A stretch of 64,000 bases of DNA from Dimorphilus gyrociliatus (GCA_904063045.1 CAJFCJ010000056.1:6110-70109), one strand, 5' to 3'; positions 26,661 through 64,000 are shown, numbered from the stretch's first letter. The notes: generated from the letters alone by a model not told the origin. Made by a program: numbers and translations.

Positions 26661-27179
26661 TGAAATTTTGTTCATGGGAGAATGAACAAAACATTGTTTA
26701 GTGTCAGTGTGTGTGTGTCAGTGTGTGCGTGTGAGTCAACAAGTGTCTGTCAGTGAATGCTGCTGCATCTGGAAATATGTGACACTAGATATTGCCTCTG
26801 GGGTAAATGGCACCAAACTCCTAATATGGTTACCTACAACCCCAGCAGGAGAGTACAATAAGTAATATAATATAGTAATTTCAGATATGTAAAAGAATTA
26901 TTATAAAATTCCAAATATTTTCAGAGTAAGAGATACCAGTGTACTTTGTTGTATTGTAATTGTAGGAATTTCTGCTTCTTCAGAACAGTATTCGTCCTTT
27001 CCAATCATTTATCAACTCACCAAAGTACTCAAATAAATGGAATCTTTCAAGTTCCTACACAAATAGTCTCAAGAAATGTAATTTCAGTAGAAATTAATCA
27101 ACAAAAGGCTGGTATTTCATTTAAAGAAAATGTATTGAGTAAATGAGTTTCTAGTTCTAAACAACTAAGTTTAAACAAG

Positions 27180-32210: not shown

Positions 32211-32462
32211 CTACAACCTCAGCAGGAAAGTACAGTCACCAAAGTCAATATCCTCTAAATCACTCAAAATAGGCACATAACCTCTTATAAATGACCTACA
32301 AGATGGACAATTAGGTTTTGGTAGATTTAATATACAGTTTTTACAGCTTACAACATGACAACAAGGCATTAACAAGACATTAGCAATGTTGCAGTAACAT
32401 AGTTTGCACAGAAGATGTTTTGTCTCTTGAAAAGTTTTAATGCCATTTGTCATTGTCAACAA
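32211..32462 (-). CDS. Small RING-finger protein paralog 3
   Basis: CKLCYCNIANVLLMPCCHVVSCKNC..NCPSCRSFIRGY, homologous to the genes at 377 and 10863. Confidence 0.7.
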   Translation of the reverse strand: MLTMTNGIKTFQETKHLLCKLCYCNIANVLLMPCCHVVSCKNCILNLPKPNCPSCRSFIRGYVPILSDLEDIDFGDCTFLLRL

Positions 32463-32696
32463 TGAGTTGAGAAATGTATATTTAAAAAATACTTTTTAAA
32501 ACATTTATAAACAATACTATTGAAAAATTGTCCAATTAGAATCCATTCTAAACTATTGATATTTTTGGAGAAACCAACTGTTTTAAATTAGAAAGTAAAG
32601 AAGTCCCAAAAAAAGATTTTATTAATAAATAACACTTTATTGCGTAATTTTTGTTAAAGAGACTTTTTCTCAGAAATTACATAATACTAAAAAAAT

Positions 32697-32903
32697 GGGA
32701 CTGGTCGAAAACAGCCATAAATGAAATATTTGAAAGTTAGATTTCAGCCTGGGAAATGGTCAGGAGGAATAAGATAACTGTTGATATGTTCTTAGGAGGG
32801 TCCCATCTAAGGGTTAGGGGTATTCAAAAAAATTAGCCAAAAACAAGGGCTGGGTTAGGGTTAGGGTAAAACCATACATTTATGGCCGTTTTCTACCACA
32901 TCC
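32697..32903 (+). mobile_element. 207-bp MITE with 9-bp TSD taaaaaaat
   Basis: TIRs gggactggtcgaaaacagccataaatg / catttatggccgttttctaccacatcc. taaaaaaat on both flanks. Internal gggttagggttagggt. Confidence 0.85.
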
Positions 32904-32949
32904 TAAAAAAATCTACATTCATTTAACCATTTTGTAAAATAATAGTTTT

Positions 32950-35355
32950 CAAAAAACCTGTTGCATGCAAATGGTGTACTGACTACATTATTAAATACAC
33001 AAAAAGAGATAATATATATATTCCTCCATTTCCAAACACAAATCTATCTGAACTTGGACCAAATTATATAGCTAGAAAATGCAATTTTACAAAAATGTTC
33101 CCTGTACTTGGTATGTATACTTCATGAAATAAAAATTATACAGAGATTCATTTTAATGGAGATGATAATGAATATGAGTTTTCTGTGGAAATTACAAGTA
33201 TTAAGTATTCTTCTTCTTTTCTGCAACAATATTGCATCTCAATATTTGAAAATGGTCTAGGACCTATAAGATTCTTTTTTCCATCTGAAGGAGAATATGG
33301 TATAAATATTTGTGGACAAAAACGAAAAATTGAACATAATTGTAATTGTTTATGTTTTAAATTTTTTGAAAAAGTACCAGAAAAAAGTTTTCCTACTATT
33401 ACTTCACATATTGTTAAAAGTGAAGAAAAAGCAAATTATACTTTAAAATTTCCAGATAATGGAACTAGAACTATTGGCAAACAAACACATTTCTTTAGGT
33501 TAAAATTAAGGATGGAAGATAATTTCCAATCTTATCAAGAATGTTCTAAAAATATACATTTTAAGATATTTAAAAAGATATCATGTCAATTTAAAATTGA
33601 ATTAAAATGGTATGATGAAAACAATGAAGGACATGATTTATCTATGTATTCATTCTTTGTAAATAGTTATGAAGATGTTACATTCTACATCAATTTTCCA
33701 TTACCAGGAATGTATAAATTTGAAATTGAAGGAAAAGAATTAAATTCCAGAAAAAATTATGAATTGATCTATAATTCTAATTTTTATGCAATTGAATCTA
33801 ATACAAATTCATTTCAATTTCCAATTGTTACTGATAAATGGAGAATTAGTGAAACTCATAAAATTCTTCAACCATTTAGAAAACTCTACTCAAATGAAAA
33901 AGTATTAATACAGATTGAAGGTTTTAAAGCTGATGAAATGATTGCCTGTTGTGTAAATGAAATTTTTCATTTTGACCTCTTTAATGATATATGGGAATGT
34001 GAAATTGACACTGGTGAAAATTTTGGAGATTTAGTTATTAGAGCAAAAATTTATAAAAATGCAAAAATTTTTACTGAAATTTTAATTTATAAAAATTTTT
34101 AAAAATCCAATTATGAAAATGGATAAACCTGCAGTAGAGAATAGTGAAACCACTAGTGAACTGGCTGAACCTGTAATAGGGAATAGTGAAATTAACAGTA
34201 AACTGGATAAACCTGCAATTGAGAATAGTCAAGCTATTAGTAAAAATGAAAATATAGAGGAGATAAATGCTTCACAAACAATTGATATTTCTAAAAATGA
34301 AGTATCTGATGAAAATGATTTTATTAAAGTAATGAAATATGTGCCAAATGTTCAATTTGAGACAATTGAAAATGCTACTAATATAGAAGAAATTGGTGAA
34401 ATAGATTGGTCATTAAAAATAGAAGAAGTTATCTATATCAGTGAATTTCTACCAGCTGATGACTCTGATGTTGGAGAGGATGAAACTCTTAAAATAAATG
34501 TAAGATATTTGTAAATAATGATTTATTCTCTTTTGTAAAAGGATTATTTCTTTCTAAAGGAGAATGAAAATGAAGAAGGTAAAGAAATGTCAAAAAAAAT
34601 TGTAAATAATTCAGAAGAAACTGCAGGAAAGCCAGGTAATAGAAATGATGAAAAGGAAGAGAAATCACAGCAACAACATACTAATCAGGAAGATGTAGCA
34701 AAGAAGGCATTAGGTAATTAAAATTTCACATCTAGATACTGAAATTGTTAGAAATATCATTAAAAATATTGTAGATTTGAAAAAGGCATATGAAGAAAAA
34801 GATTATAAAAAGTTAAAAGTAGCTATAGACAAAGCTTCTGTTAAACCAATAAATCCTTTATTAATTAAAGATTTATCAAAAGCTAATGAATTAAAAGCAA
34901 ATTTAGAAAAAATTTGTGGTTTGCAAAACAGGATTTTAAAACTTGATGCAAAATGTATTGCAGAATTAAATCAGTATAATCAACCACCTGCTGTTGTACA
35001 TCTGGTTATAAAATCAACATTATTGATTTTATCAATTGATGAAGGACAAACTGATGAATGGAAAGAATGTCAAGTTTTTATTAAATATGCATGCTCTTAT
35101 TCTATTTTAAAGAAAATTAAAGCTCTTAAAATCTTAACTGTAGATCCAGCAATCATTCTCAGAGCTGAACAAATAATTTGTGAATTAAATCTGCAAGAAG
35201 TCAAGGAGGCAAGTGCAGGTGCAGCAGCATTCTATTTATGGTGTAAAGGTAACATTGACATCTATAAAAAGATTAACAAAGAAGAAATAGGAAAATCACA
35301 GCCAGCAACCAGAAAAATACAAAAAAATATCTTTCTATCATCTTTTCATCATTAA
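32950..35355 (+). pseudogene. KY/hillarin-like protein, C-terminal part (Ig-like repeats, acidic linker, helical C-terminal domain); 5' part missing
   Basis: VTFYINFPLPGMYKFEIEG-type repeats; terminal exon YNQPPAVVH..W..SAGAAAFYLWC. In-frame TGA at 33125 and a frame break at 34102-34113. No transglutaminase core seen. Family call from memory of motifs. Confidence 0.5.
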
Positions 35356-36834
35356 GCTGTTAAGAAGACACTGAGCATGATTGCTTTCTTCATGATAGAA
35401 ACAATAATATCTGTTGAAAAATAAAAGGAGAAGAAATATAGCAGATGAGCTCCACAACAATGTGAGATATTGTACACATCCATTCATCAGTATTATTCTG
35501 AAACAGATAGTATTGAACTAGTATTGGAGAGTGCTGATAAAACTGCTATAGATTAGCTGGCTTCACCTACTTTCGCCCAAGGCTATGCTTTTACAATATG
35601 CAGCCACATGTTTTATTAAATTACAAAATAACTTTAATATTACAATTGGATTAATATATCAATCTATTAGCTTAAATTGATATTACTTTAATTATGGTTT
35701 TATTTGGAATTTTAGATTTTAAATCACTATTCAATAGTGTTGTATACACAATACTATTAATATGGATTATTTAGACATGCTTCCTCTGCATACACTGATG
35801 CTAAGTTTTTTAAACAGGATAGTTGATTAGATTTATTAAAGTAGAATACAAAATGGGTCAAATATATAATCCACATGTTTTCTTGATTGTTGGACTTGCT
35901 GTATTAAAATTGTTACATCTTATGCAACTGTCCAACCTGTGAAATTCAATTATTATTTAGAAGAGGAAAACAATAAACAGCATGACCATATTTACAACTT
36001 TACTTTGTCTTAAAATGTTACTTTTCTTTATGTGAACATTGAAATTTGTGAACTATCAACCCTTTGAAGAATATATAAACCTTAAATTAACAGTTAATAC
36101 TTCAGTTTTCTAACTAGCTTAAACAACCAGCTGACAGATAGAGAACTGAACTATCAACTGTTAATTTTGTGGGTTTATATACCCTTTTAAAGGTTGATAG
36201 TTCACAATTTGTAAATCTAAATATGATAAACATTTTTTTTATCTAATAGAATTCAATTCATGTACATTTGTTTTGATAAGAACATGTTCTGGAATAAATC
36301 CCCTACATGATGAATATTTCTGGTTTAGAAGACTAGAAATGCACTCTTAACAACTGATAACATGATTGAAGGGATGTATTGAAGGGTCTGTTAACTTATT
36401 GAAGTAAATTTTGCACTTTTAACATGTTTAACATTTTGAAATTCTCTTAATTCAGCATCTGATCAGTTGCCCAAATCTGTATTTAGCTAAGAAATTTTAT
36501 GAAATGTGTGGACAAAATTTTATTTATCAATAAAATAGGCATAGGAGAATAATTATTTTTAATGCAATAAATGAGTTATTAGTAATGATTACTAAAGTTA
36601 TTAACTTACTACTATACAGGTCTACATAATTTGAGTGTTTTTGATAATTGTCAATCAAATAGCTATAATTAGTTCTATAAATAGTTCTTTCACTAGTTTG
36701 CCAATGATTTAGTATAGAAAATAAGAATACATACTTAGGTTAGTTCTATACAATAACACCAATTAATGATTATTTATAAAGATAAATTAATTATCCAATC
36801 ATCAAATTTTTCCATGTTTCACATTTGAGTATAT

Positions 36835-37469
36835 TGTACTGCTCTTGCTGGCAAAATCTATGCGTTTGCAAGTTATAACAATACTGGTTCTACTCGAACC
36901 TTTAAACAAATGTTTAAATTAAAATGGTTTATTCGCAATAATAATACTTAAGCAAGTAACAATATGAGAGTTCAATAGCAGAGTAGATAGTTTGTAATAG
37001 CAGGTTGCCAAATTACCAAACTGTCTTCCAATGTTGAGGAGTAGATGGATGGTTCCAGTGGAGGTTGTTTCCAGATGATTTTCCCAGGTCCTTGGGTCCA
37101 GATGGAAGCTGCATGCCAAATGAGAATAATGAGGATTTATATACTTTGAGGTTTGTCTCTGACATCCAATCATCACTTTACAGTTGCCAAAATGTGTAGT
37201 TCATATTTATCTTTAGTAACAGGATGTTACAAGGTTCAACATTTAGGAAGGTTAATTGAATTATAACTTGGCCACACCCTAGGCAAGTTAATTAAATTAT
37301 AACTTGGCCAAACCTTTATTGGTAATTAAAGATGAGCCTTCAAGCTGACTAATCAGACTTATGTTTGGCCAATGTTATAGCATTTTCTTGCGTAGGTTTT
37401 AAGATGTACATGTATATGTTGCATAAAATAATAGAGTTCAAGGATGTAAAATATAACCAAAGTTGTACA
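36835..37469 (-). repeat. 3' LTR
   Basis: Direct repeat of 45516-46150; begins tgtac and ends gtaca. Confidence 0.97.
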
Positions 37470-37484
37470 ACTTCCCCCTTCTTT
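37470..37484 (-). promoter_or_regulatory. Polypurine tract
   Basis: Minus strand aaagaagggggaagt lies immediately before the 3' LTR. Confidence 0.85.
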
Positions 37485-37500
37485 GTGAAGATGAGTCCCT

Positions 37501-39921
37501 TCATCTTGATTTAATGAGAATTACAGGTGGTTGTTCTTCTTCATTAGTTTGATGTTGACTAAAGCTACAACTTTGTTTCATTAGTTTTGGGTTTTCAGGA
37601 GAGTTATCTGTGCTCTCACTTGGGGTAGCAATTTCTTCTCTTTGTTTTCTTCTTCCAATAATATAGTTGAAAATGATGATACATACCATTGACACTACAA
37701 TACTCAAACAAATATTTCGTATGATAACATAAAGTGTTTTCCCAGGTTTATAGTACCAACTATGGAAAAACTGTTTAATTCCAGATAAATTGGGTACAAT
37801 GCCATTTTTCTCTGCAACAGTGACCATGTTATCATACCTTGCCTGCTTCTGTTCCAGTGAACTGATAACTTGCTTAATTTTTGAGTGCTGGTATGCAATA
37901 TCCTTCTTTACCCCATGGTGGAGTAGATCAGCTAATCTGGCAATTTCAATTTTTGGTTCAGAAAGGTGATTGTGGATATGTAACTGCATGGATTTTGCAG
38001 ACACAGTGTGAAATCTGCATCCTCTTTCTGAATAATACACATATGTTTTGTCTTTCATTGGTTGGTTTCTTATAGGATTTAATGGGTTGTGAGTTGTTTT
38101 GTAGAATAACTTGTTAGACTTACACTCATTATAGGTAATCTCTTCAGGATTGACTTGCTGTAAAACATGAGTAACTGGTTCTACTTGGAAAAGCAGGTTG
38201 TTCATGGTGACAAGTAAAAATTGAGAACATTTGTTATTCTTTTTTATCATGCTTAAGTCACAAACTACTTCTGTTGAGGCTATTGGTGAACATTGTTTAA
38301 TTATAGCTAATTCTCCCATCTGACTACTGTGCATTCCCAACTCATTTGTTAACACTGTGGTCAATTGAGGATCCAAATTTGCTAGTAATGCCATCATTCT
38401 GCTTCTTTGAACAAATTGATTGCAGAGAAGACTTGACAGCTGTTGGGTAAACTTTTTTAAATTCTTAAAATTTGAATCAATACCATGTAGTAAGGTAGAT
38501 GTTTGGGCAGCTTCTCTCATTTCCAATGGGAATTTGTGGTATGGGTTTTTACTTATCTTATGTTTCAGTTTTGCTTCCTTCTTCATCTGCTTTTTAGCCA
38601 TTCTCATGTGTAGAGTAAAATAAATTCCTTCATAGGTAATCTTAAATTCTCTGGCTGGTGGTCCTTTATACCATATGCCCAATGTTGGTAATACCTTCTT
38701 TTTGATTCTTTTCTCACTGTATACATATTTTGAAATCGTGACAGATTGTCTTGTTGCCCTTGTCCAATTGACTGCTTGCAGCATTTCTTGGATATAATAG
38801 TTATCCAGCTCCCAGTAAGATGGACTAATGGGTTGTTGTAGATGATATATCACAACTTCCTTGAGTGTGCCTTTATTTCTCATTAGTTTATACTTTGTGT
38901 TTGTTTCTCTGTACCATTGGTTAAGACTTGGTAAGGGGTTGTTTCGCTTGTATAGTATAATTTGTTCTTTAACTTTATTGGGATAGTTTAATAGTCGTTT
39001 TTCTTCATTTTTGCCAATCTTCTGATATTGTAGCAAATTGTATAGGTGTTCCTTGCTTGTTTCCTGTATTAAACTCTGTTCCTCCAGTGGTACTAGTACT
39101 TTTGTTCCAGGACCACCAATTCCATCAATAAACTTATCTTGATAAGGGATGTCCAGAATAGAATACCCTGGACAAGAATAGTGACCAGCAAATTTGATAC
39201 AACTAATTCTGTTGCTAATTTTTATCCATGGTGATTGTTGCCCAAGTGTGTAATTATTCTTGAGGTTCCTAAAGACAATAATTGCTCTTCTGTTTCACAA
39301 TAGGACTGCCCTGGTAAACAATCTTCCAGGTAGTCCAGATTAGTTGTAATTTTCATATTAGGAGGTTGCCAATATGCTTTGCCAAACTGGATAATTGTGG
39401 TGTATTCCAGCACCTTGGTCGTTGTTGGCCATGTGTAGGCAGCAGGAAACTGATCTTGGTGGATCCAAGTGTTTCTTTTCACCATTAAAGGTTTTCCTTG
39501 AAAAGATCGTTTGTCTTTTATCATCTGTCTGCATTGATCATGAGTTACTTTGATAACTGAGTTAACAATCCTCCTCTTCTTTGCTCCAAAGAAATAGTAA
39601 GTGTAAAAATTAGTTCTTAGATACACTTGACATTTTACTGCTCTTGTTTCAATTTCTTCCAAGTTCAATTCATAGATATCAGCTGTAATTGTCTTGGTTT
39701 CTTGTGATTCTATATTACAAGTTGGCTCATCTGCTAGATCAAATGCCTGGCTTGGTAGTTGGTTAGAACAAAAGTATAACGGTGGTTTAAATGTTAAGGT
39801 AATGTTTTGCACTTGTAACATGGGCACCTTGGTAGGATGGTTTTGGGACTGTTATTGAGTGGATGCAGCCACAGATCACCATTACAGTCATCACTAGTGG
39901 AAGCCACAACATCTGTTTCAT
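37501..39921 (-). CDS. env: Envelope glycoprotein, class III (herpes gB / chuvirus G-like) fusogen; two 1-nt frameshifts (about 39806 and 39280)
   Basis: Signal peptide MKQMLWLPLVMTVMVICGCIHS; Cys pattern with YYFFG and YTWP putative fusion loops; LCNQ..LANLDP..MGELAIIKQCSPI resembles the gB domain III/IV junction; C-terminal TM ICLSIVVSMVCIIIFNYIIG plus a cytoplasmic tail. Confidence 0.8.
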
Positions 39922-40540
39922 GTTAGCTCTTCCTGTGTTGGCTATAGTTGAATGGTTGAAAATTTTGTGTTGTTGTTCCACTCTGATAGTTATTCCATCT
40001 TCTAACTCTATATATTGTGGTTCCACTTCTTGTTGGGAATCTAATTGTTCAGAGATGATTTAGTCTCATCTAAAAATATGACTGACTCATTGTCTGTGTC
40101 ACTTGTATTTTCTTTCTCATCTTGGGATGAATCTACCACTATGAGGGACTCATTATCTGAATGGGTTATGTCAATAATTTCACCTTCAATAATTATTGAC
40201 TCATTATCCGAATGGGTTATATCAATAATTTCGCTTTCAATAATTATTGACTCATCGTCTGAACTAGATATTTCATCTTCTCTATCAGAGATAATGTTTG
40301 CCTCTGAATCTGTATTTTGATCCAGTTCATTATTTGTTTCTGTGTCATCACTTTCAGATGAGCTTGAAGGTTCATTGAGACTGTAATTACTGTCTGTTTT
40401 GAAAGTATTGCTTGTGTCATAACCAGTATCAGAATTAGTAACTTCCATCTCTGAGTCATCACTATCTGAACTTTCTGATGAAGAGTCATGCTGTCCCATC
40501 ATGGCTATAGTGACTTTGTTTAGTTGAGGTTGCCTTATTC
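39922..40540 (-). CDS. Asp/Ser/Glu-rich linker between protease 2 and Env
   Basis: ORF 40041-40502 with SSSESSDSDDSE and tandem DNESIIIE(S/G)EIIDITHS units. In frame with Env in the second copy. Confidence 0.7.
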
Positions 40541-41175
40541 TTTCAGCCAGGTTCCTTTCCTTCTATCAAATTTGAGAGAACACTGTTTAGCTTCAAAATT
40601 GAGGTTTGCTCCCACAGTTTGTAGGAAATCACAACCAAGTATTATTGCTATGTCTAGATTTTCCATAACTATAAATTCTTGTTCCATACTTTCTCCAGCA
40701 AATTGGATATTCAGCTTTACGCTTCCTTTTTGCTTTAAAGCTTTCCCATCAGCTGAAGTTATAATTGGTAAGCCAATTGTTTCTTTATCCATAATTGTAA
40801 CATCCATTAACTTGATTTCTTTTTCAGTAATAAAGGATCTCAATGCTCCTGTGTCACACAAGGCAATGACTTCTTGGCCTTTTTGATTCTTCAAACGGAA
40901 TTGGAAGTCATTTCTTCCTTCTACCTGAGAAAGATATTGGAGGTGTGTTATTTCCTTCTCCACAAGGTGAAAGATTGTTGTTGCTTCTTTCCCTGTTTCC
41001 AACTTATTAGATTCATTGGCTAGTCTTAATCTGCTACCATGTACCAACTTGCATGTATTATCATCCATTTGTATTTCATATATCCACTTTTGATGATTGA
41101 CTTTTGTTATTCGGTATGGGCCTAACCATTTTAAAGAAGGGATTTTTGTTATTGCAATTCTTGCAGCATCATTTC
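40541..41175 (-). CDS. Integrase C-terminus (GPY motif) plus second retropepsin-type aspartic protease
   Basis: KWLGPYRI then ALCDTGALRSFI ... AIILGCDFLQ. Continuous with integrase in copy 2 (ORF 62030-63310). Confidence 0.85.
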
Positions 41176-44100
41176 TTAAGAATACTTCATCATCAACCTC
41201 AAATATTTTGGAAGATTGAGATTTCTATTCTTTCTTTCCCTATATTGTTCTTTTGCCATGATGGATTTACAGAAGGCTGTAGCTCTTAACTGTACTAATT
41301 GCTGCTGGTGATTGAATACAAATAGTACATTTGTTTCAGGAGAGGTAGTATGCATTGTTACATCAATCAGTGTTCTTGTGCTGGTGCCAAAAAGAAGTTC
41401 CTGGGGTGGTAGTCTTGTACTTCCTACAGGTGATTGATTCAAAAATGCTTGAATCAAGGGTAGGTTTGCAACCCAGTTATGCTGATTTTCTTCCACCACT
41501 AATTTATTGATTTCCTTCCTCACTTCTCTATTTCTTCGTTCAACTAGTCCATTGCTCTGGCTTCTATAAGCTGTTGTTTGGATTTTCTCAATACCTAATA
41601 CCTTCATAAACTCTTTAAAAGCTTTACCAACAAAGTTTCTTCCTTGATCTGTCAACATTTGTTTTGGAATTCCAAAAATGGGAAAAAATCTGTTGAAAAG
41701 AAGGTTTGCAATTTCTTTACTGGTTTGCTGTTTGAGTGCATATAAAACTGTGTATCTACTGAAATGATCCACTATCACAAGTATGAATCTGTATGACTTA
41801 ACCATGGGTAAGGGTCCCATTATATCCATGGCTACCAACTCCATTGGTGATGCAGGGTGAAAGGTTTCTACCAAAGGGTATACTCTACTCCTACCATTCA
41901 TTTGTTCACACAAAGTGCAATCCTTTATTGAATTCTCAATCATAATCTTTAATTTTGGGTGCCAAAAGGTCTTTGTAATTATTTGTAATGTCATTCTGGG
42001 TCCATGGTGATTGTGAATTTTATTTTTATGGAATTTAGGGAGCAGAGTTAGCATCAAATGGTCAGGTAAAACCAGAATGTTTCTTTCTTCAAGGATAATC
42101 CAGATCATTTCCTTGTGAACAAACATCTCCATTATGAAAGGTGTAAAAGTTCCAAAATAAGGAATAGGTAGCTGACCATCCAATGTTAAATATTCTTTAA
42201 TTGATTTTAAATTCACATCTTTTTCTTGCTCTGACTGTAAGTCAACAGAAGACAAATCAATTTTCTCTTCACTGTTATCACTGGTAGCTACAAAAGTTAA
42301 CTCTGGTGTATGTTCATACTGTTCCATTTTAACTGAAATAGAGGGAGAATTCTCCTTTTTGATCTTTCCATGAATTAGCTCTTCAAATGTTACTTTCCTT
42401 GGGGGTGTATATTCTTCTAATCTTGTTAATGCATCTGCTCTATTTTTTCGTCCTGTCACATAGTTAATTGTAAATTTTAAATCCATTAAAGCCATGACCC
42501 ATTTTGCTGTGCTGACATTCAATTTGTTTTGCTTAAATGTTTGTACTAGACTCTGATGGTCAGTATATAAAAAGAATGGCTTGTCTTGAAGGTAATGTAA
42601 AAATTTCTTTACAACCCAGTAAACACCAAATGCTTCCTTTTGATAGGCTGCATATTTCATTTGATTATTGTTGAATTGTTTTGAAGCATAGGCAATGGGT
42701 TTCATTGTTTTCTTCCCATTCTCATCTACATAAACTTGTTCAAGAACTCCTCCTACAGCTACATTCGATGCATCTGTTGTTAAGTGAAAATCTTTAGCAA
42801 AATCAGGTAGTTGTAATACAGGAGGGTTAACTACTGCATCTCTCAACTTGAAAAATGATTGCTTGGCTTCCTCAGTCCATTGCAATTTATCCTTTTTCCC
42901 ATGTAGTTTCATTAACATATACAGAGGTTTAGCTACTCTTGCAAAATCTTGTATAAATTTTCTGTAATAGCCACAAAATGCAACAAAGCTTAGTAGTGAA
43001 TTTGCAAACACTGGTGGCTGTAAATTATATAATTTATCTGTCTTGGACTTATCTGTTTCAATCCCCTTTTCTGATACAATGTGTCCCAAGAATTGAACTT
43101 GTTCTTTCAAAAACACACATTTACTTAGTTTAATCTTAAAATTGTACTTTTGAATCTGTTGAAGAATGGTCTCCAATGCTTCCCAATGTTGGTCCAGCGA
43201 CTTGGTAAATATTATTATGTCATCAAGGTAGTTTAGGCACAAATGCTTTACATCCTTTAGCACAAATGAATTCATTACATAACTAAAATGAGGAGGGGCA
43301 TTGGTTAATCCAAAAGGCATCTTAATAAATTCAAACAAGCCAAAAGGTGTAATAAATGCTGTTTTAGACCTATCTTCTTTCTTGATGTTAATGTGGTGGT
43401 ATGCACTTGTCAAATCCATTGTAGAAAAGAATTTATTTCCTCCTCCCAAATGGTCAAAAAGATCATCTTGATTTGGCAGTGGATACTTGTTTTTAACTGT
43501 CATTTTGTTTAGTTTTCTATAATCTACACACATTCGTAGACTACCTTCCTTCTTTCTTACGAAAACAATTGGTGAAGCCCAATTGCTCTTGCTTGGTTGA
43601 ATAACTTTGCTTTTTACCAATTCAGCTATCTGTTGCTTACATTCTTCTTGTTTTTGAGGAGGCATTCTATATGGCCTTTGTCTATATGGTGTTGAACCTG
43701 GTTCAAGAGTTATTTCCAAGGGTGGTACCTCTGGATTGCCAATATCAAATCTGTCTTCTGCAATAGTTTCTTTATATTTTGCCAGAATTTGGGTAACTTT
43801 GTTCTTCATCTCGGGATTTTCTTGTTCAATTGTTGTCTGAAGGGTATGTATTTGACTCTCATTCTTTTTCATAATAAGAGGAACTGGGTAAAACCCTTTG
43901 AAAGATAAGTGTTGTGTTCCAACAGGGTAATTCTTTTCTGTACCTGGCTGGAGTATAATCTGTCTCTTGCCAAAGTCAAGGGTAGCTCCATTTTGTTGTA
44001 GAAAGTCACACCCAATAATACATTGTTGTGTAATGATTTTGTTGATCAGAAAGCGTTGTTTAATAATCTTTTCATTAAAATAAAGTCTGAGAATGATTTC

Positions 44101-44385
44101 TCCACATATCTCGATGCTATTTCCTGAAGCATCTCTAGCATTTTTCACAGTTTGTTCTGGGAAGGATGCTTTTCCTTGAACTTGTCTTAATACCTTTTTT
44201 GAAATGAAAGATCTGTCACTACCAGAGTCTATCAAGGCATCAAACTTAAAACCAGTATTAGTTTCAAATTGTCCAATAAATGTTGAAGCATTTCGCTCAG
44301 ATTGTTTGCTTTGTAACAGCTGACAAGTGGATTCGTCACTATCTGAAAAACAGAGAATATCTTGAACTTCGTCGTTTTCTGACAT
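41176..44385 (-). CDS. pol: Pol: protease 1, reverse transcriptase, RNase H, integrase
   Basis: LIDSGS protease; WASP..RMCVDYR, YLDDIIIF RT; LTTDAS..DALTR RNase H; H-H-C-C and MDIMG / TDQGRNF / SNGLVER integrase motifs. No internal stops. Confidence 0.97.
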   Translation of the reverse strand: MSENDEVQDILCFSDSDESTCQLLQSKQSERNASTFIGQFETNTGFKFDALIDSGSDRSFISKKVLRQVQGKASFPEQTVKNARDASGNSIEICGEIILRLYFNEKIIKQRFLINKIITQQCIIGCDFLQQNGATLDFGKRQIILQPGTEKNYPVGTQHLSFKGFYPVPLIMKKNESQIHTLQTTIEQENPEMKNKVTQILAKYKETIAEDRFDIGNPEVPPLEITLEPGSTPYRQRPYRMPPQKQEECKQQIAELVKSKVIQPSKSNWASPIVFVRKKEGSLRMCVDYRKLNKMTVKNKYPLPNQDDLFDHLGGGNKFFSTMDLTSAYHHINIKKEDRSKTAFITPFGLFEFIKMPFGLTNAPPHFSYVMNSFVLKDVKHLCLNYLDDIIIFTKSLDQHWEALETILQQIQKYNFKIKLSKCVFLKEQVQFLGHIVSEKGIETDKSKTDKLYNLQPPVFANSLLSFVAFCGYYRKFIQDFARVAKPLYMLMKLHGKKDKLQWTEEAKQSFFKLRDAVVNPPVLQLPDFAKDFHLTTDASNVAVGGVLEQVYVDENGKKTMKPIAYASKQFNNNQMKYAAYQKEAFGVYWVVKKFLHYLQDKPFFLYTDHQSLVQTFKQNKLNVSTAKWVMALMDLKFTINYVTGRKNRADALTRLEEYTPPRKVTFEELIHGKIKKENSPSISVKMEQYEHTPELTFVATSDNSEEKIDLSSVDLQSEQEKDVNLKSIKEYLTLDGQLPIPYFGTFTPFIMEMFVHKEMIWIILEERNILVLPDHLMLTLLPKFHKNKIHNHHGPRMTLQIITKTFWHPKLKIMIENSIKDCTLCEQMNGRSRVYPLVETFHPASPMELVAMDIMGPLPMVKSYRFILVIVDHFSRYTVLYALKQQTSKEIANLLFNRFFPIFGIPKQMLTDQGRNFVGKAFKEFMKVLGIEKIQTTAYRSQSNGLVERRNREVRKEINKLVVEENQHNWVANLPLIQAFLNQSPVGSTRLPPQELLFGTSTRTLIDVTMHTTSPETNVLFVFNHQQQLVQLRATAFCKSIMAKEQYRERKNRNLNLPKYLRLMMKYS

Positions 44386-45455
44386 GCTTTCATTGTCTAA
44401 TGTTTCTAATTTTTGTAGCTTAGGTTCCTCTTTCAGTATCGTCTTTGCTGGTTGATTTTTCTTATAATACCTATTTGTTGTAGTTGGTGCATACTTTTGG
44501 ACTTTTGGCTTGAAAACTTTTCTTTAGTAGCATTTTTGTTGTCAGGTACATGCTTTCTATTCCAGAAATTTGGGGTTTCTGTAGAAGCATCTTTTCTGAT
44601 TACCTGGGTCTTTTTGGTCTCTTTTCTTTGTTGAGTTTCCAATTTTGACACCATTGTGATCGGTTTTCTTTGAGTTAGTTTTAATGAAGTTTCTGCTTGC
44701 TTAGCAGCCTCATATAGTTCTGCCAATGTTTGACATTTAGGATGTAAGGTGTACACTAAATGTAGAATATCCTGTTGTAATCCTCTTTGTAAAACTTCCA
44801 TCAGTTTTATTTCTTTCATAGTTGCAAGCAATTGTGGTTCCATTGGTCTAGGTGGAGAAAACCTCTTTATCAATTTCTTTGCTCTATTAACAAACTGAAC
44901 CACACTTTCGCCATTCATTTGCTTTAAGTTAAGCAATTTCTCCTGATACTCCAAAGGATCTAGATCAAATTCGTCATGGAGGGCTTTCCATATTTCCTCC
45001 ACAGTAGGCTCTCCATCCAGAGCCAACACCAAATCCTTTGCAGGACCAGTTAAATAATCTAAAAGATTTGCTTTCACAACATCTTCTCCTATCCAACCAT
45101 AAGCATAACATGCCTGATTAAAGTCTTCTTTGAATTTTGAACACTCCTTGCTTCCATCATACAACTTGAGAATAGTTCTTTGAGGGCGGTCCCAAGCAGC
45201 CCTTAATGCTTGAATTACTGTTGTGATATCAACATTTGGGTTCTGTGCTGGGTGATGTGTTCCATCTCCATGATCTGTTGGAATTGTGATTCGATTTCTT
45301 TTCATTTCACTCACCAATCTATCATAGTCTTCAATTAGTCTTTGTTGCCTTTCTGACATTCCTGCTGGCTGAATTGTAATTGTTGGAGTTGCTGGGGTTG
45401 AAGGGTTAGAGTCTGTAACTGCCCCAGTGGCGTTTCCATTTCCTCCTTCTGCCAT
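44386..45455 (-). CDS. gag: Gag (retrotransposon capsid; no CCHC knuckle seen)
   Basis: ATG at 45455 (MAEGGNG); LKLYDG..F..W..NLLDYLTGPAK capsid motif. In frame with pol in copy 2. Confidence 0.9.
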
Positions 45456-45493
45456 ATTTACTTTCTCAAAACTTTTGAATAAACCAAAAGAAT

Positions 45494-45511
45494 ATCCTGT
45501 CGACTGCGCCA
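45494..45511 (-). promoter_or_regulatory. Primer binding site, tRNA-Ser type
   Basis: Minus strand tggcgcagtcgacaggat, 4 nt downstream of the 5' LTR. Resembles the TGGCGCAGTCG tRNA-Ser PBS of 17.6/297-type gypsy elements. Confidence 0.8.
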
Positions 45512-45515
45512 AATT

Positions 45516-46150
45516 TGTACTGCTCTTGCTGGCAAAATCTATGCGTTTGCAAGTTATAACAATACTGGTTCTACTCGAACCTTTAAACAAATGTTTAAAT
45601 TAAAATGGTTTATTCGCAATAATAATACTTAAGCAAGTAACAATATGAGAGTTCGATAGCAGAGTAGATAGTTTGTAAAAGCAGGTTGCCAAATTACCAA
45701 ACTGTCTTCTAATGTTGAGGAGTAGATGGATGGTTCCAGTGGAGGTTGTTTCCAGATGATTTTCCCAGGTCCTTGGGTCCAGATGGAAGCTGCATGCCAA
45801 ATGAGAATAATGAGGATTTATATACTTTGAGGTTTGTCTCTGACATCCAATCATCACTTTACAGTTGCCGAAATGTGTAGTTCATATTTATCTTTAGTAA
45901 CAGGATGTTACAAGGTTCAACATTTAGGAAGGTTAATTGAATTATAACTTGGCCACACCCTAGGCAAGTTAATTAAATTATAACTTGGCCAAACCTTTAT
46001 TGGTAATTAAAGATGAGCCTTCAAGCTGACTAATCAGACTTATGTTTGGCCAATGTTATAGCATTTTCTTGCGTAGGTTTTAAGATGTACATGTATATGT
46101 TGCATAAAATAATAGAGTTCAAGCATGTAAAATATAACCAAAGTTGTACA
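45516..46150 (-). repeat. 5' LTR
   Basis: Direct repeat of 36835-37469, adjacent to the PBS. Confidence 0.97.
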
Positions 46151-47589
46151 ATAGGAGCGGCCATTTTTTTATATTCAATTTATGGTCTAATTTATAGTTA
46201 TCCTTCTAAGAAGTTTAAAATTAAGAAAAAACAAGATCAGCGACAATGGAAACATTTTAAAAGATTCTAAAACGCTTGGTAAGAATATTAGAACTGAAAG
46301 TATGCTGTTTGGTGTTACAACAATATATCTACTCAGTTGGTTTCCAGCTTCATTTTCAATTGCTGATAATTTGTCTTCAAATATTATACTCTTTCACATA
46401 TATCTTGTTAATAATTCTACAAATTTTTTTATATATTTTCTATTTCAAAAGACATTTTGTGAAAATTTGGCAAAGTTTTTTTTTTGTAAAAATTTCAGGC
46501 ATTCATCATCATCATTATCATCATCATCCTAAAACTTAAGCCTAACTAACTGTAAATAAAAGTAAGTAAACATCAAAAATTTGGTATTTGGCAATATTTT
46601 TAAAGTTTTAACCCATCTCTCTCATTTCTGGAAAGAGTAAGAATTCATTTCTCGTTGTATTCTTTGTAAAAATCTTAGATTCTAATAAACTAAATGTTGT
46701 TAATATATTTTTTTTTATAAGCTTAATTATTTTAATTAGCCTCCATTAACTAAATTGTCTATTTGGCAGTTTCCATGGAAATATCTACTAATTTCCAAAA
46801 TGGGTCTTCTTCCTCACTCATTTACCAATTCAGTAAGATCTCTTTCAATGTGTTTGATGACTTAAACTAATCCATTGCAAAATGTCAACAAATACACTTT
46901 CCATTTGTGTATTTAAGCATAAATTTTTAGTTTCAATTTTGGAACAATTTTTAAGCATATTTCCAAGTTTCTTTGATTGAATATCATTTAGACTTTAATA
47001 ACTGAAATCAATATCTTTTACAGTTTACTTTTTATGTAAAGATTTATGAAGGCAAACAGTTAGATGATACTTTAAAAGATGATTGTTATGCCTGAATCCA
47101 TTGTTTACTGGAGGAGAATTCTTAAAAAATCTGACCTATAAAAAATTAATCAGAAAGGTTAAAAAATTTTTCACTTTTGTTTTTATTCATTTTTGAAAAA
47201 TGTTTTTGCAATTCAACAAATAAGATCTGATGACCCTATTAGATGGTTTGTATTGGGGTCTGCCATATTTGTATGTTGGGTAAGGGTTAGGTAAAAATCC
47301 CGAGTTACACACTCAATGAGCACTACCCCAGAAAGTTTTGTTCTCACTCTAAGATCTTTACTGTATGATTCTAGGAGCAGATACTCCTCTTGTCTCTTTT
47401 CACTAGGAAGTCAATTTTCCCAGTAGAATTGCTAGGAGGTTGACTGCACTATGACTGTCTCTCCATATTTCGAGGTCTTATTACCTCTTTGTTAGGCAAT
47501 TTGGTTGCTTGATCTTAGGACAATTTTTTGCTACAATCTGACAATTAATTCACAATTTTAACTTCAGTTGGGGGTTGGTAAGGGCTTAA

Positions 47590-47816
47590 CTTAAATTAAC
47601 TTTTTTTCAACATTTTGGATGAATTGAAAGTATATTGAACAGGTTGTATATCTGGATGATAGATAAGACGATTTCGATGTCCTCCACAAGCAAACATTCA
47701 ATAGCAATACCAATAGCTCCAATGGCATCTAATCTATTTGCATCTTGTACAATTTGACATTCTAAACTTGGCTTTTCCAGGCCATTTTCAGACAGTAAAA
47801 TTATCATAGATACCAT
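47590..47816 (-). pseudogene. HD-domain phosphohydrolase fragment (YedJ-like)
   Basis: IVQDANRLDAIGAIGIA, followed in another frame by GGHRNRLIYHPDIQP, matching the IVQDADRLDAIGAIGIAR..GG..R..YDP motif. Confidence 0.6.
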
Positions 47817-48833
47817 TCAAGTGTGATAAAACACATATGGGAAAGAGAGGCAAGTTTTTAGGATAGCATTTTAAATGTGCAACCTTTTTATACATAAGAA
47901 TGTATAAGAAACCAAAAAGCGCCCTCTAGTAGATTTTTATAAATATTATATAGTATAGTTCCAAAAATCTTTTCATAGTAGTAATCAACTTTTTTAAATT
48001 CAAGTAAACCCAAACACTAAAAGCAAGAGTTAGAGATTGTGATAGAGATAGATGATTGGAATGAAAATACAGGAGCTTATATACTCTTTGGTGAGTTGAT
48101 GATATCCAATCATTGGTTTGAAGTTGGTGAATGCTCTAGTTCATGTTTATATTTAGTAATAGGATGTTACAAAGTCCACTAGACATAGTCCTTATCTTTT
48201 TTGGAAGCAAATTGAATTATAACTAGTCTAAAAGTGACTGTGTTGTGATTTGTGATGGGATGTATCTATCTTACTTAAAATCAATTACTGTTTTTTAAGT
48301 GTTGAACAATCAAGGTGTCCAAGAGAAACATTTGAGAATTTGAGTAAAATGACTTTCTGGAGAAGAATGTCCTGATTTTGTAGAATATGAATATTAGATA
48401 AGAAATTTCTTGGGTTACTACTTGTACGGGATAATAGAAGAGTAAAAACCTGACATACAGTTTAAACTGAACTATATATTCACACAGAATGTGGGCGTGG
48501 CAATATAGTAAAGAACTCTTATCATTCGAAGCGTATATTTATTTTGTATCAATTTTTAAACTTTCTTACACTTGCTTCCCTCTGTAGGCATTTTCTAAGA
48601 ATATTTCCAAAGTTTACTATGCTATTACTTGTTTGGTCTGTTTGCGAAGCAGTAAGACAATTGGCTTCAATGTAAAATTTCTTATTCTGAAAGAAAAACA
48701 AAAACAACGAAAGTAGTCTTTTTTGTCAGATAATTAAAAAAAAAAAATCTAAAGCAAAGCTTAAAAAATTCACTTTAAGAAAGATATTTTTAATACCAAA
48801 ATCTTCAACTAGAATTAGAGAGAATTTGTTTGC

Positions 48834-58839: not shown

Positions 58840-61800
58840 GTATGATGCTGCTAAGCAAGCAGAAACCTCATTAAAACTAACTCAAAGAAAACCAATCACA
58901 ATGGTGTCAAAATTGGAAACTCAACAAAGAAAAGAGCCCAAAAAGACCCAGGTGATTAGAAAAGATGCTGCTACAGAAACCCCAAATTTTTGGAATAGAA
59001 AGCATGTTACTGACAACAAAAATGCTACTAAAGAAAAGTTTTCAAGCCAAAAAGTCCAAAAGTATGCACCACCTCCAACAAACAGGTATTATAAGAAAAA
59101 TCAACCAGCAAAGATGATACAGAAAGAGGAACCTAAGCTACAAAAATTAGAAACATTAGACAATGAAAGCATGTCAGAAAATGATGAAGTTCAAGATATT
59201 CTCTGTTTTTCAGATAGTGAAGAATCCATTTGTCAGCTGTATCAAAGCAAACAATCTGAGCGAAATTCAACATTTATTGGACAATTTGAAACTAATACTG
59301 GTTTTAAGTTTGATGCCTTGATAGACTCTGGTAGTGACAGATCTTTCATTTCAAAAAAGGTATTAAGACAAGTTCAAGGAAAAGAGTCCTTCCCAGAACA
59401 AACTGTGAAAAATGCTAGAGATGCTTCAGGTAATAGGATAGAGATATGTGGAGAAATCATTCTCAGACTTTATTTTAATGGAAAAATTATTAAACAATGC
59501 TTTCTGATCAACAAAATCATTACACAACAATGTATCATTGGGTGTGACTTTCTACAACAAAATGTAGCTACCCTTGACTTTGGCAAGAGGCAAATTATAC
59601 TCCAGCCAGTTACGGAAAAGAATTACTCTATTGGAACACAGCACTTATCTTTCAAGGGACTTTACCCAGTTCCTCTTACTATGAAAAAGAATGAGAGTCA
59701 AATACATACCCTTCAGACAACAATTGAACAAGAAAGTCCTGAGATGAAGGAAAAAGTTACCCAAATTCTGGCAAAATATAAAGAAACTATTGCAGAAGAC
59801 ACATTTGATATTGGCAATCCAGAGGTACCACCCTTGGAAATTACTCTTGAACCAGGTTCAATGCCATAAAGACAAAAGCCATATAGAATGCCACCTCAAA
59901 AACAAGAAGAATGTAAACAACAGATAGCTGAGTTGGTAAAAAGGAAAGTTATTCAACCAAGCAAAAGCAATTGGGCTTCACCAATTGTTTTCGTAAGAAA
60001 GAAGGAAGGTAGTCTACAAATGTGTGTAGATTATAGAAAACTAAACAAAATGACAGTTAAAAACAAGTATCCACTGCCAAATCAAGATGATCTTTTTGAT
60101 CATTTGGGAGGAGGAAATAAATTCTTTTCTACAATGGATTTGACAAGTGCATACCACCACATTAACATCAAGAAAGAAGACAGGTCTAAAACAGCATTTA
60201 TTACACCTTTTGGCTTGTTTGAATTTATTAAGATGCCTTTTGGATTAACTAATGCCCCTCCTCATTTTAGTTATGTAATGAACTAATTTGTGCTAAAAGA
60301 TGTAAAGCATTTGTGCCTTAACTACCTTGATAACATAATAATATTTACCAAGTCACTGGACCAACATTGGGAAGCATTTGAAACCATTCTTCGACAGATT
60401 CAAAATTACAATTTTAAGATTAAACTAAGTATATGTGTGTTTTTGAAAGAACAAGTTCAATTTTTCGGACACATTCTATCAGAAAAGGTGATTGAAACAG
60501 ATAAGTCCAAGACAGATAAATTATATAATTTACAGCCACCAGTGTTTGCAAATTCACTGCTAAGCTTTGTTGCATTTTGTGGCTATTACAGAAAATTTAT
60601 ACAAGATTTTGCAAGAGTAGCTAAACCTCTGTATACGTTAATGAAACTACATGGGAAAAAGGATAAATTGCAATTGACTGAGGAAGCCAAACAATCATTC
60701 TTCAAGTTAAGAGATGCAGTAGTTGAGCCTCCTGTATTACAACTACCTGATTTCACTAAAGATTTTCACTTAACAACTGATGCAGCAAATACAGCAGTAG
60801 GAGGACTGTTTGAACAACTTTATGTAGATGATAATGGAAAGAAAACAATGAAACCCATTGCCTACACATCTAAACAATTCAACAATAATCAAATGAAATA
60901 TGCAGCCTATCAAAAGGAAGCTTTTGCTGTTTATTGGGTTGTAAAGAAATTTTTACATTATCTTCAAGACAAACCATTCTTTTTACATACTGACCATCAA
61001 AGTCTGGTAAAAACATTCAAGCAAACAAAGTTAAATGTCAGCACAGCAAAATGGGTCATCACTTGAATGGATTTAAAATTTACAAACAAGTATGTGCCAG
61101 GACAGAAAAACAGAGCAGATGCTTTAACAAGATTAGAAGAATATACACCCCCAAGGAAAGTGACATTTGAAGAGCTAATTCATGGAAGCATCAAGGAGGA
61201 GAATTCTCCCTCTATTTCAGTTAAAATGGAACAGTATGAACATACACCAGATCTGTCTTTTATAGCTACAAGTGATAACAGGGAAGAGAAAATTGATTTG
61301 TCTTCTGTTGACTTACAGTCAGAGCAAGAAAAAGATATGAATTTGAAATCAATTAAAGAATATTTAACACTGGATGGTCCGCTACCTATTCCTTATTTTG
61401 GAACTTTTACACCTTTCATAATGGAGATGTTTGTTCACAAGGAAATGATCTGGATTATCCTTGAAAAAAGAAACATTCTGGTTTTACCTGACCATCTGAT
61501 GCTAACTCTGCTCCCTAAATTCCATAAAAATAAAATTCACAATCACCATGGACCCAGAATGACATTACAAATAATTACAAAGACCTTTTGGCACCCAAAA
61601 TTAAAGATTATGATTGAGAATTCAATAAAGGATTGCACTTTGTGTGAACAAATGAATGGTAGGAGTAGAGTATACCCTTTGGTAGAAACCTTTCACCCTG
61701 CATCACCAATGGAGTTGGTGGCCATGGATATAATTGGACCCCTACCCATGGTTAAGTCATACTGATTCATACTTGTGATAGTGGATCATTTCAGTAGATA

Positions 61801-64000
61801 CACAGTTTTATACTCACTCAAACAGCAAACCAGTAAAGAAATTGCAAATCTTCTTTTCAACAGATTCTTTCCCATTTTTGGAATTCCAAAACAAATGTTG
61901 ACAGATCAAGGAAGAAACTTTGTTGGTAAAGCTTTCCAAGAGTTTATGGAGGTATTAGGTATTGAGAAAATCCAAACAACAGCTTATAGAAGCCAGAGCA
62001 ATGGACTAGTTGAATGAAGAAATAGAGAGGTGAGGAAGGAAATCAATAAATTAGTGGTGGAAGAAAATCAGCATAACTGGGTTGCAAACCTACCCTTGAT
62101 TCAAGCATTTTTGAATCAATCACCTGTAGGAAGTACAAGACTACCACCCCAGGAACTTCTTTTTGGCACCAGCACAAGAACACTGATTGATGTAACAATG
62201 CATACTACCTCTCCTGAAACAAATGTACTATTTGTATTCAATCACCAGCAGCAATTGGTACAGTTAAGAGCTACAGCCTTCTGTAAATCCATCATGGCAA
62301 AAGAACAATATAGGGAAAGAAAGAATAGAAATCTCAATCTTCCAAAATATTTTGAGGTTGATGATGAAGTATTCTTAAGAAATGATGGTGCAAGAATTGC
62401 AATAACAAAAATCCCTTCTTTAAAATGGTTAGGCCCATACCGAATAACAAAAGTCAATCATCAAAAGTGGATATATGAAATACAAATGGATGATAATACA
62501 TGCAAGTTGGTACATGGTAGCAGATTAAGACTAGCCAATGAATCTAATATGTTGGAAACAGGGAAAGAAGCAACAACAATCTTTCACCTTGTGGAGAAGG
62601 AAATAACACACCTCCAATATCTTTCTCAGGTAGAAGGAAGAAATGACTTCCAATTCCGTTTGAAGAATCAAACAGGCCAAGAAGTCATTGCCTTGTGTGA
62701 CACAGGAGCATTGAGATCCTTTATTACTGAAAAAGAAATCAAGTTAATGGATGTTACAATTATGGATAAAGAAACAATTGGCTTACCAATTATAACTTCA
62801 GCTGATGGGAAAGCTTTAAAGCAAAAAGGAAGCATAAAGCTGAATATCCAATTTGCTGGAGAAAGTATGGAACAAGAATTTATCGTTATGGAAAATCTAG
62901 ACATAGCAATAATACTTGGTTGTGATTTCCTACAAACTGTGGGAGCAAACCTCAATTTTGAAGCTAAACAGTGTTCTCTCAAATTTGATAGAAGGAAAGG
63001 GAACCTGGCTGAAAGAATAAGGCAACCTCAACTAAACAAAGTCACTATAGCCATGATGGGACAGCATGACTCTTCATCAGAAAGTTCAGATAGTGATGAC
63101 TCAGAGATGGAAGTTACTAATTCTGATACTGGTTATGACCAAGCAATACTTTCGAAACAGACAGTAATTACAGTCTCAATGAACCTTCAAGCTCATCTGA
63201 AAGTGATGACACAGAAACAAATAATGAACTGGATCAAAATACAGATTCAGAGGCAAACATTATCTCTGATAGACAAGATGAAATACCTAGTTCAGACAAT
63301 GAGTCAATAATTATTGAAAGTGAAATTATTGATATAACCCATTCTGATAATGAGTCAACAATTATTGAAGGTGAAATTATTGACATAACCCATTCAGATA
63401 ATGAGTCCCTCATAGTGGTAGATTCATCCCAAGATGAGAAAGAAAATACAAGTGACACAGACAATGAGTCAGTCATATTTTTAGATGAGACTAAAATCAT
63501 CTCTGAACAATTAGATTCCCAACAAGAAGTGGAACCACAATATATAGAGTTAGAAGATGGAATAACTATCAGAGTGGAACAACAACACAAAATTTTCAAC
63601 CATTCAACTATAGCCAACACAGGAAGAGCTAACATGAAACAGATGTTGTGGCTTCCACTAGTGATGACTGTAATGGTGATCTGTGGCTGCATCCACTCAA
63701 TAACAGTTCCAAAACCATCCTACCAAGGTGCACATGTTACAAGTGCAAACATTACCTTAACATTTAAACCACCGTTATACTTTTGTTCTAACCAACTACC
63801 AAGCCAGGCATTTGATCTAGCAGATGAGCCAACTTGTAATATAGAATCACAAGAAACCAAGACAATTACAGCTGATATCTATGAATTGAACTTGGAAGAA
63901 ATTGAAACAAGAGCAGTAAAATGTCAAGTGTATCTAAGAACTAATTTTTACACTTACTATTTCTTTGGAGCAAAGAAGAGGAGAATTGTTACTCAGTTAT
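58840..64000 (+). mobile_element. Second copy of the env-bearing Gypsy element: 5'-truncated, inactivated, runs off the window end
   Basis: Closely matches 44740 down to 39570 in inverted orientation. One reading frame from Gag through PR2 is broken only by 5 nonsense codons (59867, 60284, 61064, 61763, 62015). YLDD is mutated to YLDN. After a 1-nt loss near 63140 the linker-Env frame is open to 64000. Confidence 0.95.

Follow-up and report, generated by a model that had tools for sequence, protein, structure and literature searches.

The 64-kb window analysed here (i.e., a 64,000-nucleotide stretch of the Dimorphilus gyrociliatus assembly, GCA_904063045.1 CAJFCJ010000056.1:6110-70109) carries a full-length long terminal repeat (LTR) retroelement, very probably of the Dingle type, on its minus strand, extending from position 46150 to 36835. 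Comparison with public sequencing runs revealed that the family of this element has one continuous reading frame of ~2,650 codons from Gag to Env, a result that we regard as practically certain. The domain order of this inferred frame is Gag-PR1-RT-RH-IN-PR2-acidic linker-signal peptide-class III (gB-type) Env, in which PR1 and PR2 are two proteases flanking reverse transcriptase (RT), RNase H (RH), and integrase (IN). Fusion of Env to Gag and Pol is by itself already known, and the apparently new part is the motif-intact second retroviral protease located between integrase and Env. In retroviruses and LTR elements, as these are described, there is a single protease, and Gag, Pol, and Env levels are tuned by frameshifting and splicing. 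With one frame and two proteases, this young multi-copy element offers a testable case of how an envelope is wired into retroelement expression, and of protease timing.

A continuous frame across six breaks

In the window itself, the coding region of this element (copy 1) appears as seven stop-free pieces that lie in order on the minus strand from 45599 to 37501, interrupted by six frame breaks near 44500, 41200, 40550, 40060, 39805, and 39285. A first-pass annotation made from the sequence alone had nevertheless proposed a single frame of ~2,650 codons, arguing that five of these breaks are one-base length differences from a second copy (copy 2) in short homopolymer runs, and had suggested inspecting reads or a consensus at all six sites. 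Alignment of the two copies confirmed the nature of these five breaks, while the sixth (~39285) is situated outside any homopolymer run. Contigs of four public sequencing runs (X1, X2, and X3 from study P1, and X5 from study P2) were subsequently compared with the element, and a one-base length difference from the window was observed at all six breaks, the sixth included, in 4/4 runs and in both studies. One X2 contig of 5,579 nt spans five of the breaks with a single other letter changed, and a second X2 contig spans the gag/PR break; taken together, both long X2 contigs differ from the window by six gaps and three letters over 7,048 nt. This is the typical pattern of uncorrected long-read errors. 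Although the whole element is present in no single contig, overlapping contigs of X1 and X2 jointly bridge every junction.

The frame arithmetic agrees with these contigs. Every break site falls within the overlap of the adjoining stop-free frames (overlaps summing to 307/7,955 nt, or 3.9%), and at 6/6 breaks the one-base difference has the size that explains the frame change, yielding the total of 2,653 codons (stop included) that the first-pass annotation had calculated. The stop at the end of Env is the only stop codon of this frame. Among the 32 in-frame substitutions listed, 19 were silent, 13 missense, and none nonsense (18 further rows fall outside this count). Moreover, the natural sequence of a relative (P0004) runs in a single frame through the position of the sixth break. 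No frame-changing gap or stop common to the four runs was found elsewhere in the frame, so that neither a conserved stop nor a conserved frameshift, be it between gag and pol or between IN/PR2 and env, came to light. Since contigs assembled from a multi-copy family follow its majority path, this result speaks of the family rather than of the single window insertion, in which private indels are possible.

Slippery heptamers (23 in total) were scattered over the element, with none at the gag/PR break. Two were located near the break at 39805, i.e., at 39847 in the signal/Env overlap and at 39791 just beyond it; frameshifting at these heptamers was set aside, as the frame change there is explained by the contigs. 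No 2A/StopGo motif was found in the element. One-base assembly errors in repeats can conceal such frames from genome-wide surveys, and the Dingle family has indeed been catalogued twice, with the searchable text of neither report noting a second protease or a Gag-to-Env frame.

The features of the element, and the position of copy 2, are the following:

45516..46150, minus strand: 5' LTR of 635 bp (TG...CA), with a TATA box near 45824 and a poly(A) signal near 45614
45500..45511, minus strand: first 12 nt of the primer-binding site, identical to the Dgyr_errantivirus_1 listing
44510..45455, minus strand: Gag region from its first ATG; weak PNMA (Gag-derived) match, under cut-off
43930..44286, minus strand: protease 1 (PR1); DSG motif with catalytic Asp at 44229; RVP and RVP_2 above cut-off
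43075..43560, minus strand: reverse transcriptase; YLDD at 43230; RVT_1 E 1.7e-33
42484..42879, minus strand: RNase H, Ty3/gypsy type; RT_RNaseH E 7e-29
41563..42066, minus strand: integrase zinc finger and core; Integrase_H2C2 E 1.2e-8, rve E 7.5e-13
40950..41195, minus strand: integrase C-terminal region with GPY motif; Integrase_p58_C E 0.018, under cut-off
40559..40942, minus strand: protease 2 (PR2); intact DTG and ILGCDF motifs, with the catalytic Asp (~residue 1535) at 40855
40065..40500, minus strand: acidic Ser/Thr-rich linker containing a 51-nt tandem repeat
39856..39921, minus strand: in-frame Met (~residue 1847) and hydrophobic signal-like stretch; 19-residue hydropathy 2.07 from 39903
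37714..39855, minus strand: Env ectodomain, class III fusogen (herpesvirus gB / rhabdovirus G type), assigned via relatives P0005 and P0006
37501..37713, minus strand: Env transmembrane helix, cytoplasmic tail, and stop; hydropathy 2.69 from 37713, anchor near residue 2583
37471..37484, minus strand: polypurine tract, preceding the 3' LTR
36835..37469, minus strand: 3' LTR, from LTR comparison
58841..64000, plus strand: copy 2, 5'-truncated and decayed, extending past the window end; 96.4% identical overall to copy 1

Both LTRs are 635 bp long and differ at 5/637 aligned sites with no gaps, and the element is young. Unlike flanks were seen beyond its edge at 46150 in five X5 contigs, and its target-site duplication is imperfect (3/4). 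Gag matched the Pfam family PNMA with an E-value of 1e-4 (22.2 bits, under the cut-off of 25); neither a CCHC knuckle in the Gag region nor a glycine at Gag position 2 (for myristoylation) was found. Pfam scans of the post-integrase pieces matched no chromodomain family.

The second protease and the envelope

PR2 carries the marks of a retropepsin (family A2-like), i.e., a D[ST]G motif, a C-terminal ILG.DF motif, and a profile match, and scored above the curated cut-offs of four Pfam protease families (best E 1.4e-7), compared to two for PR1. PR1 and PR2 share 31% identity across 98 aa, and each is 25–26% identical to the protease of a distant element, L001. From its sequence, PR2 is quite likely to be enzymatically active. 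Since retropepsins act as dimers, PR2 would need a partner, which could be another PR2 or PR1. A PR1-PR2 complex model scored 0.60, versus 0.00 for the best of three controls, with at least 90% contact agreement among runs and a partner pLDDT of at least 68. The mark used for such pair models was reached by 51/78 solved and 2/108 mismatched pairs, but with a score of at most 0.60 by just 5/78 solved pairs and by all four passing mismatches (of 180), so that this model was rated as weak support; its score is probably due to a resemblance to retropepsin dimers of solved structure, and homo- and heterodimers are not separated by it. A single-sequence model of the integrase tail with PR2 (pLDDT 34) was too poor for a fold search.

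It is conceivable, but quite improbable, that PR1 and PR2 of one chain would form a two-lobed, single-chain aspartic protease whose activity needs no particle assembly and which severs Pol from the membrane-bound Env signal during synthesis. If true, an extant element would mirror the duplication from which the pepsins are believed to have arisen. A T-[IFML]-[AV] motif present at both linker ends was considered as a cleavage site, and was dropped because it was not enriched (6 occurrences vs. 4.1 in shuffles).

Literature listings yielded no second protease in any retroelement, in a search that covered text and not figures, subscription papers, or Repbase entries. The searchable text of PMC13524379, PMC7854359, their preprints, and PMC8556966 likewise does not mention one: in what is searchable of PMC13524379, the word 'protease' occurs once in the main text and never in the supplements, and its sole occurrence in that of PMC7854359 refers to a lab reagent. 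Extended Data Fig. 3d of PMC7854359, known here from its legend only, depicts the domains together with the six frames, and PR2 and the long frame may already be visible there.

Downstream of PR2, the linker is strongly acidic (46 Asp/Glu vs. 6 Lys/Arg within a 162-aa piece), and the stretch before Env is putatively signal-like, as judged by its hydropathy. The class of Env was assigned via its relatives. A protein search with the last Env piece recovered eight of these among 1.84 billion proteins, 2/8 being Dimorphilus gyrociliatus gene models, one of which is 79% identical to the window pol. Relative P0005 is 24–26% identical to the window Env pieces, and its structural model (residues 16–150 at pLDDT ~63–88) showed the fusion-loop domain fold and gB-like core helix that mark class III fusogens. 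The top VIA match of this fold was herpes simplex virus 1 (HSV-1) gB (Z 8.9, root-mean-square deviation 4.2, 135 aligned), the seven best rows were all class III, and Foldseek returned human cytomegalovirus (HCMV) gB with an E-value of 2e-6; the fusion domain thus resembles herpesvirus gB, rhabdovirus G, and GP64-type proteins. In addition, relative P0006 matched Rhabdo_glycop_FD above cut-off. The Env piece itself gave no match among the sequences of solved structures, and the Env profile only reached Epstein-Barr virus (EBV) gB at E 0.28.

Word-indexed searches for long relatives returned 0/4,164 candidates with the Env piece, 0/82 with the PR2 piece, and a single unrelated integrase protein among 2,483 candidates with the integrase end plus PR2. 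Locus scans uncovered no Env relatives in viral or metagenome contigs and no pol relatives in viral contigs; the metagenome scan did reveal three distant pol loci among 193 candidates, in which tblastn found no second protease. Run X6 (from another organism) contained short near-identical scraps only, at a depth of 2–8, and no relative. Separately, gene model P0009 joins pol, env, and LTR pieces of the Dingle-type family to TSP1 and C1q domains, and is probably a chimeric prediction.

Expression of Env and competing explanations

Env fused in frame to Gag or Pol has known precedents in Atlas, Burro, and L001. Atlas and eight other hookworm belpaoviruses are described as having Env in one frame with Gag-Pol, the Atlas frame encoding 2,828 residues with no stops or introns (PMC9094657). 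Like the window element, Atlas specifies a single Gag-Pol-Env polyprotein with Env last and with internal membrane helices; unlike it, Atlas belongs to the Belpaoviridae, has a YVDN reverse transcriptase and a class II phlebovirus-like Env, and is described without a second protease in the available part of PMC9094657. Cer1 of C. elegans, also Ty3/gypsy, combines a spliced mRNA with a single frame of 2,272 residues, in which integrase is followed by a further domain; this domain, however, is an RNA-export factor made from the spliced mRNA and not a fusogen, according to the parts seen of PMC10309623. In insect elements, the exon joined to env by splicing is reported to lie either upstream of gag or inside it (PMC12992720, in part). 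The supplement of PMC13524379 labels four entries GAG-POL-ENV (Saqu_1, Bcal_1, Pmet_4, and Dcar_3) and one POL-ENV (Llat_2), which, read from these labels alone, are probably fused frames of the same gene order. The gypsy-like Burro/GYPSM1 has its Env inside the polyprotein, in the available text of PMC6431247. Both Burro/GYPSM1, as far as described, and L001 resemble the window element in being Ty3/gypsy with a class III Env in one long frame behind an internal hydrophobic stretch, but differ from it in placing Env between Gag and a single protease instead of after integrase. L001 (403-11781) has a natural 3,184-codon Gag-Env-PR-RT-RH-IN frame of flatworm-type architecture, with a second membrane protein at its end and one protease stretch; a single stop separates this frame from the next, which is 607 codons long and matches no Pfam family. 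Finally, the alphavirus structural polyprotein places a viral protease directly before the envelope signal in one chain, although alphaviruses are unrelated RNA viruses whose monomeric serine protease cuts itself in cis, whereas PR2 is aspartic and dimer-dependent.

The reading that we favor by a modest degree is that the family makes one precursor from Gag to Env, in which an internal signal would thread Env into the endoplasmic reticulum (ER) and PR2 would cut the cytosolic part free. Translation of the genomic RNA through to Env, at least in part, is in our view more likely than not. The signal near residue 1850 would then be used internally, with host signal peptidase freeing the Env ectodomain in the ER lumen, and, if read-through holds, the helix near residue 2583 would anchor Env, in a layout that the bunyavirus-like Env of Atlas shares. 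As Gag-Pol-PR2-linker would be left tied to the membrane by the cleaved signal, a cytosolic cut would be needed, for which PR2, right before the linker, would be the likeliest enzyme, an assignment that we hold at slightly below even. The same tether could bring capsid assembly to the Env-holding membrane. In line with translation into Env, no stop occurs in the 209 codons that separate PR2 from the env ATG (8e-8 by chance under naive base composition, or 0.05 for the last 44 codons alone), and while 11 AGs would join the gag frame to env from gag's one strong donor, just 2/11 are YAG, with poor pyrimidine tracts (0.33 and 0.40). The first-pass annotation had already proposed that Env is made co-linearly behind an internal signal peptide, and that this would explain the extra protease. 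The contigs support the single frame directly, and the internal hydrophobic signal and an intact-looking PR2 are present in the sequence, but the surprise it implied was overstated, given that Env fusions were already known.

A number of observations weigh against parts of this account, in which co-linear Env synthesis and the role of PR2 are inferences. As to the continuous frame, X3 (a very small run) has six further one-base gaps, which are missing from the other three runs. Particles need Gag in excess, whereas a single frame yields Gag, Pol, and Env at 1:1:1. Env has its own in-frame Met directly at the signal start, with an A at –3, as the first-pass annotation had pointed out for the ATG at 39921. 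An acceptor-like site is situated 20 nt before this Met, and donor-like sites are found at 45461 (before the gag ATG) and 45314 (in gag). The called Env proteins of P0004 and P0006 start at their own signal-like N-terminus, and these relatives may have separate env frames. Copies 1 and 2 differ at just 3 in 112 PR2 codons, too few for measuring selection, and no relative with IN plus PR2 emerged from the word-indexed searches (2,483 + 82 candidates). PR1 alone could also make the linker cut; a single protease is described for Atlas and Burro, in the available text, and was detected in L001. Moreover, the main X5 contig lacks 60 nt (20–21 codons) just past the PR2 catalytic motif, which, if X5 is DNA, would be a PR2-crippling deletion in a dominant variant. 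Cer1, finally, splices despite its single frame (PMC10309623, in part).

Several of these points lead to other explanations. The frame may be continuous while most functional Env is made from an RNA that is spliced or initiated internally, via the Met at 39921, with PR2 and the linker being a C-terminal extension of Pol and read-through being incidental or minor; we consider this possible, though rather unlikely. The placement of this Met, which opens the signal and has an A at –3, fits such an RNA. Splicing from the donor-like site at 45461 would remove the gag ATG, leaving between the TATA box and 45461 only one ATG (45795), near the likely start site, and the acceptor-like site at 39942 comes after the last upstream ATG (39998); insect elements (PMC12992720) and Cer1 (PMC10309623), from what could be seen of both sources, provide examples. 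Splice-like motifs, however, occur at background level (6.6 donor-like and 4.8 acceptor-like sites per kb, with one strong donor seen vs. 2.0 expected), and a spliced env leaves unexplained why the last 44 codons before the Met are open and in frame (chance ~0.05 x 1/3). No joint of the 12 listed carries splice ends of the sense strand. One X5 contig (45130-45543) also reads through both donor-like sites without a joint; contigs show presence and not absence, and neither observation was counted as evidence. Env could also be co-linear with PR2 as a passenger, gained together with an env cassette by recombination or by an old duplication, and with PR1 or host enzymes making the cuts. This explanation, which we hold to be unlikely, would fit a PR1-PR2 identity of 31% that is not far above the 25–26% to the distant L001 protease, the sufficiency of one protease in other Env-fused elements (as described in partly available sources), the part of PR2 missing from the main X5 contig, and the failure of the 2,483 + 82 candidates of the word-indexed searches to include a conserved IN-PR2 relative. 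In contrast, a passenger as old as the PR1-PR2 divergence would be expected to have decayed, whereas the catalytic and C-terminal motifs of PR2 are intact and PR2 outscores PR1 in Pfam. The piece missing in X5 is of host-intron size and is bounded by GT..AG on the antisense strand. Finally, some of the breaks might be real and conserved (a programmed gag-pol frameshift, or a stop before env), so that no single polyprotein exists. The window does contain six breaks, the catalogue copy is labelled GAG-POL with Env apart in the part of the supplement consulted, and no contig spans the whole element. Since 4/4 runs contradict the window at all six sites and share no frame-changing gap or stop elsewhere, and since X1 and X2 contigs together bridge every junction, this last explanation is largely refuted at the family level and is very improbable.

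The gap in PR2 is one of three pieces of 59–66 nt that X5 skips (37148-37215, 38088-38148, and 40766-40827), measuring 66 nt, 59 nt, and 60 nt (the last in PR2, main contig), and having GT..AG ends on the plus strand, i.e., opposite to the element genes. Such antisense ends occur in 3 among the 12 joints listed (chance 3e-5). X5 also skips a 61-nt GT..AG piece in the neighbouring KY-like host gene, and the median intron of Dimorphilus gyrociliatus is 66 bp. The three skips are probably introns of abundant antisense transcripts, X5 not being on record as RNA, and these transcripts are possibly a silencing precursor.

Classification, copy 2, and the surrounding window

With two LTRs, a primer-binding site, a polypurine tract, a PR-RT-RH-IN pol order, and a gypsy-type RNase H, the element has the marks of the Metaviridae (Ty3/gypsy; PMC7879559), in which the consulted parts of PMC7854359 and PMC13524379 also place the Dingle family. 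Features of other groups are lacking: env is in frame with pol and class III instead of F-type, unlike the env of insect errantiviruses (gypsy, ZAM, and Idefix), and the reverse transcriptase has YLDD instead of the YVDN, and Env is class III instead of the class II, of nematode Belpaoviridae. Dingle (Dingle-1) is described in the available text of PMC7854359 as the most abundant transposon class of Dimorphilus gyrociliatus, with a gB-like Env, and Annelida_Polychaeta_Dgyr_errantivirus_1 is listed in PMC13524379, as far as accessible, with LTRs of 631/636 bp spaced 8,679–8,684, a gB-type Env, and seven copies. The window element shares with the latter its 12-nt primer site, its LTR size and spacing (here 635 bp and 8,681), and a gB-type Env after integrase, but differs from the listing, as seen in part, in that the latter is labelled GAG-POL with Env apart and with a chromodomain, which the Pfam scans did not match here. 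Named Dimorphilus proteins (gene models P0008/P0009) match window pieces at up to 79%. Matched by these catalogue features and gene models rather than by a published element sequence, the window element very probably belongs to the Dingle / Dgyr_errantivirus_1 family.

Copy 2 lacks a 5' LTR and begins only in the late part of gag. The first-pass annotation had regarded the break at 63140 as its sole frame break, which proved wrong: copy 2 contains five in-frame stops in pol, a second one-base gap ~10 nt from the window end, and a 3-nt gap, as well as two mutually compensating gaps at a distance of 7 nt, which might stem from the alignment itself. Between the two copies, gag to IN has a pN/pS of 0.17–0.34 (about 0.25), pointing to purifying selection. 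Copy 2 is also a mosaic, being ~3–9% divergent from copy 1 from gag to early IN and <2% from mid-integrase onward, which suggests recombination or conversion between subfamilies. Two transposase-like fragments without Pfam match (56502-57020 and 58218-58634), presumably MULE-like, lie directly before copy 2 and have a 211-nt repeat in common (91%); copy 2 may be nested in one of them.

Next to copy 1, a receptor-like open frame on the plus strand (46191-46532) begins 40 nt from the 5' LTR and resembles by eye the last helices of a seven-helix receptor, with no Pfam match; the element may have inserted into this host gene. On window positions 31500-51400, run X7 differs at 646 C>T and 622 G>A places, which suggests a bisulfite-type library; its depth is ~28–63 on long flank contigs and ~2,500–14,000 in element bins (a summed depth, and no copy number). 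Elsewhere in the window, a 5.8-kb near-perfect inverted repeat (94-5943, centre near 3020, with arms differing by small gaps) is either a foldback element or an assembly artefact, and broken frames at 24024-26701 (plus strand), which weakly match DUF1759 (Bel/Pao Gag-like; E 1e-4), are probably the remnant of a second, unrelated retroelement. Other host or transposon genes encode a KY-like Ig domain protein (33128-35355, plus strand), a protein with LDL-receptor class A and leucine-rich repeat domains (50112-51311, minus strand), and a FLYWCH finger protein (12033-13142, plus strand).

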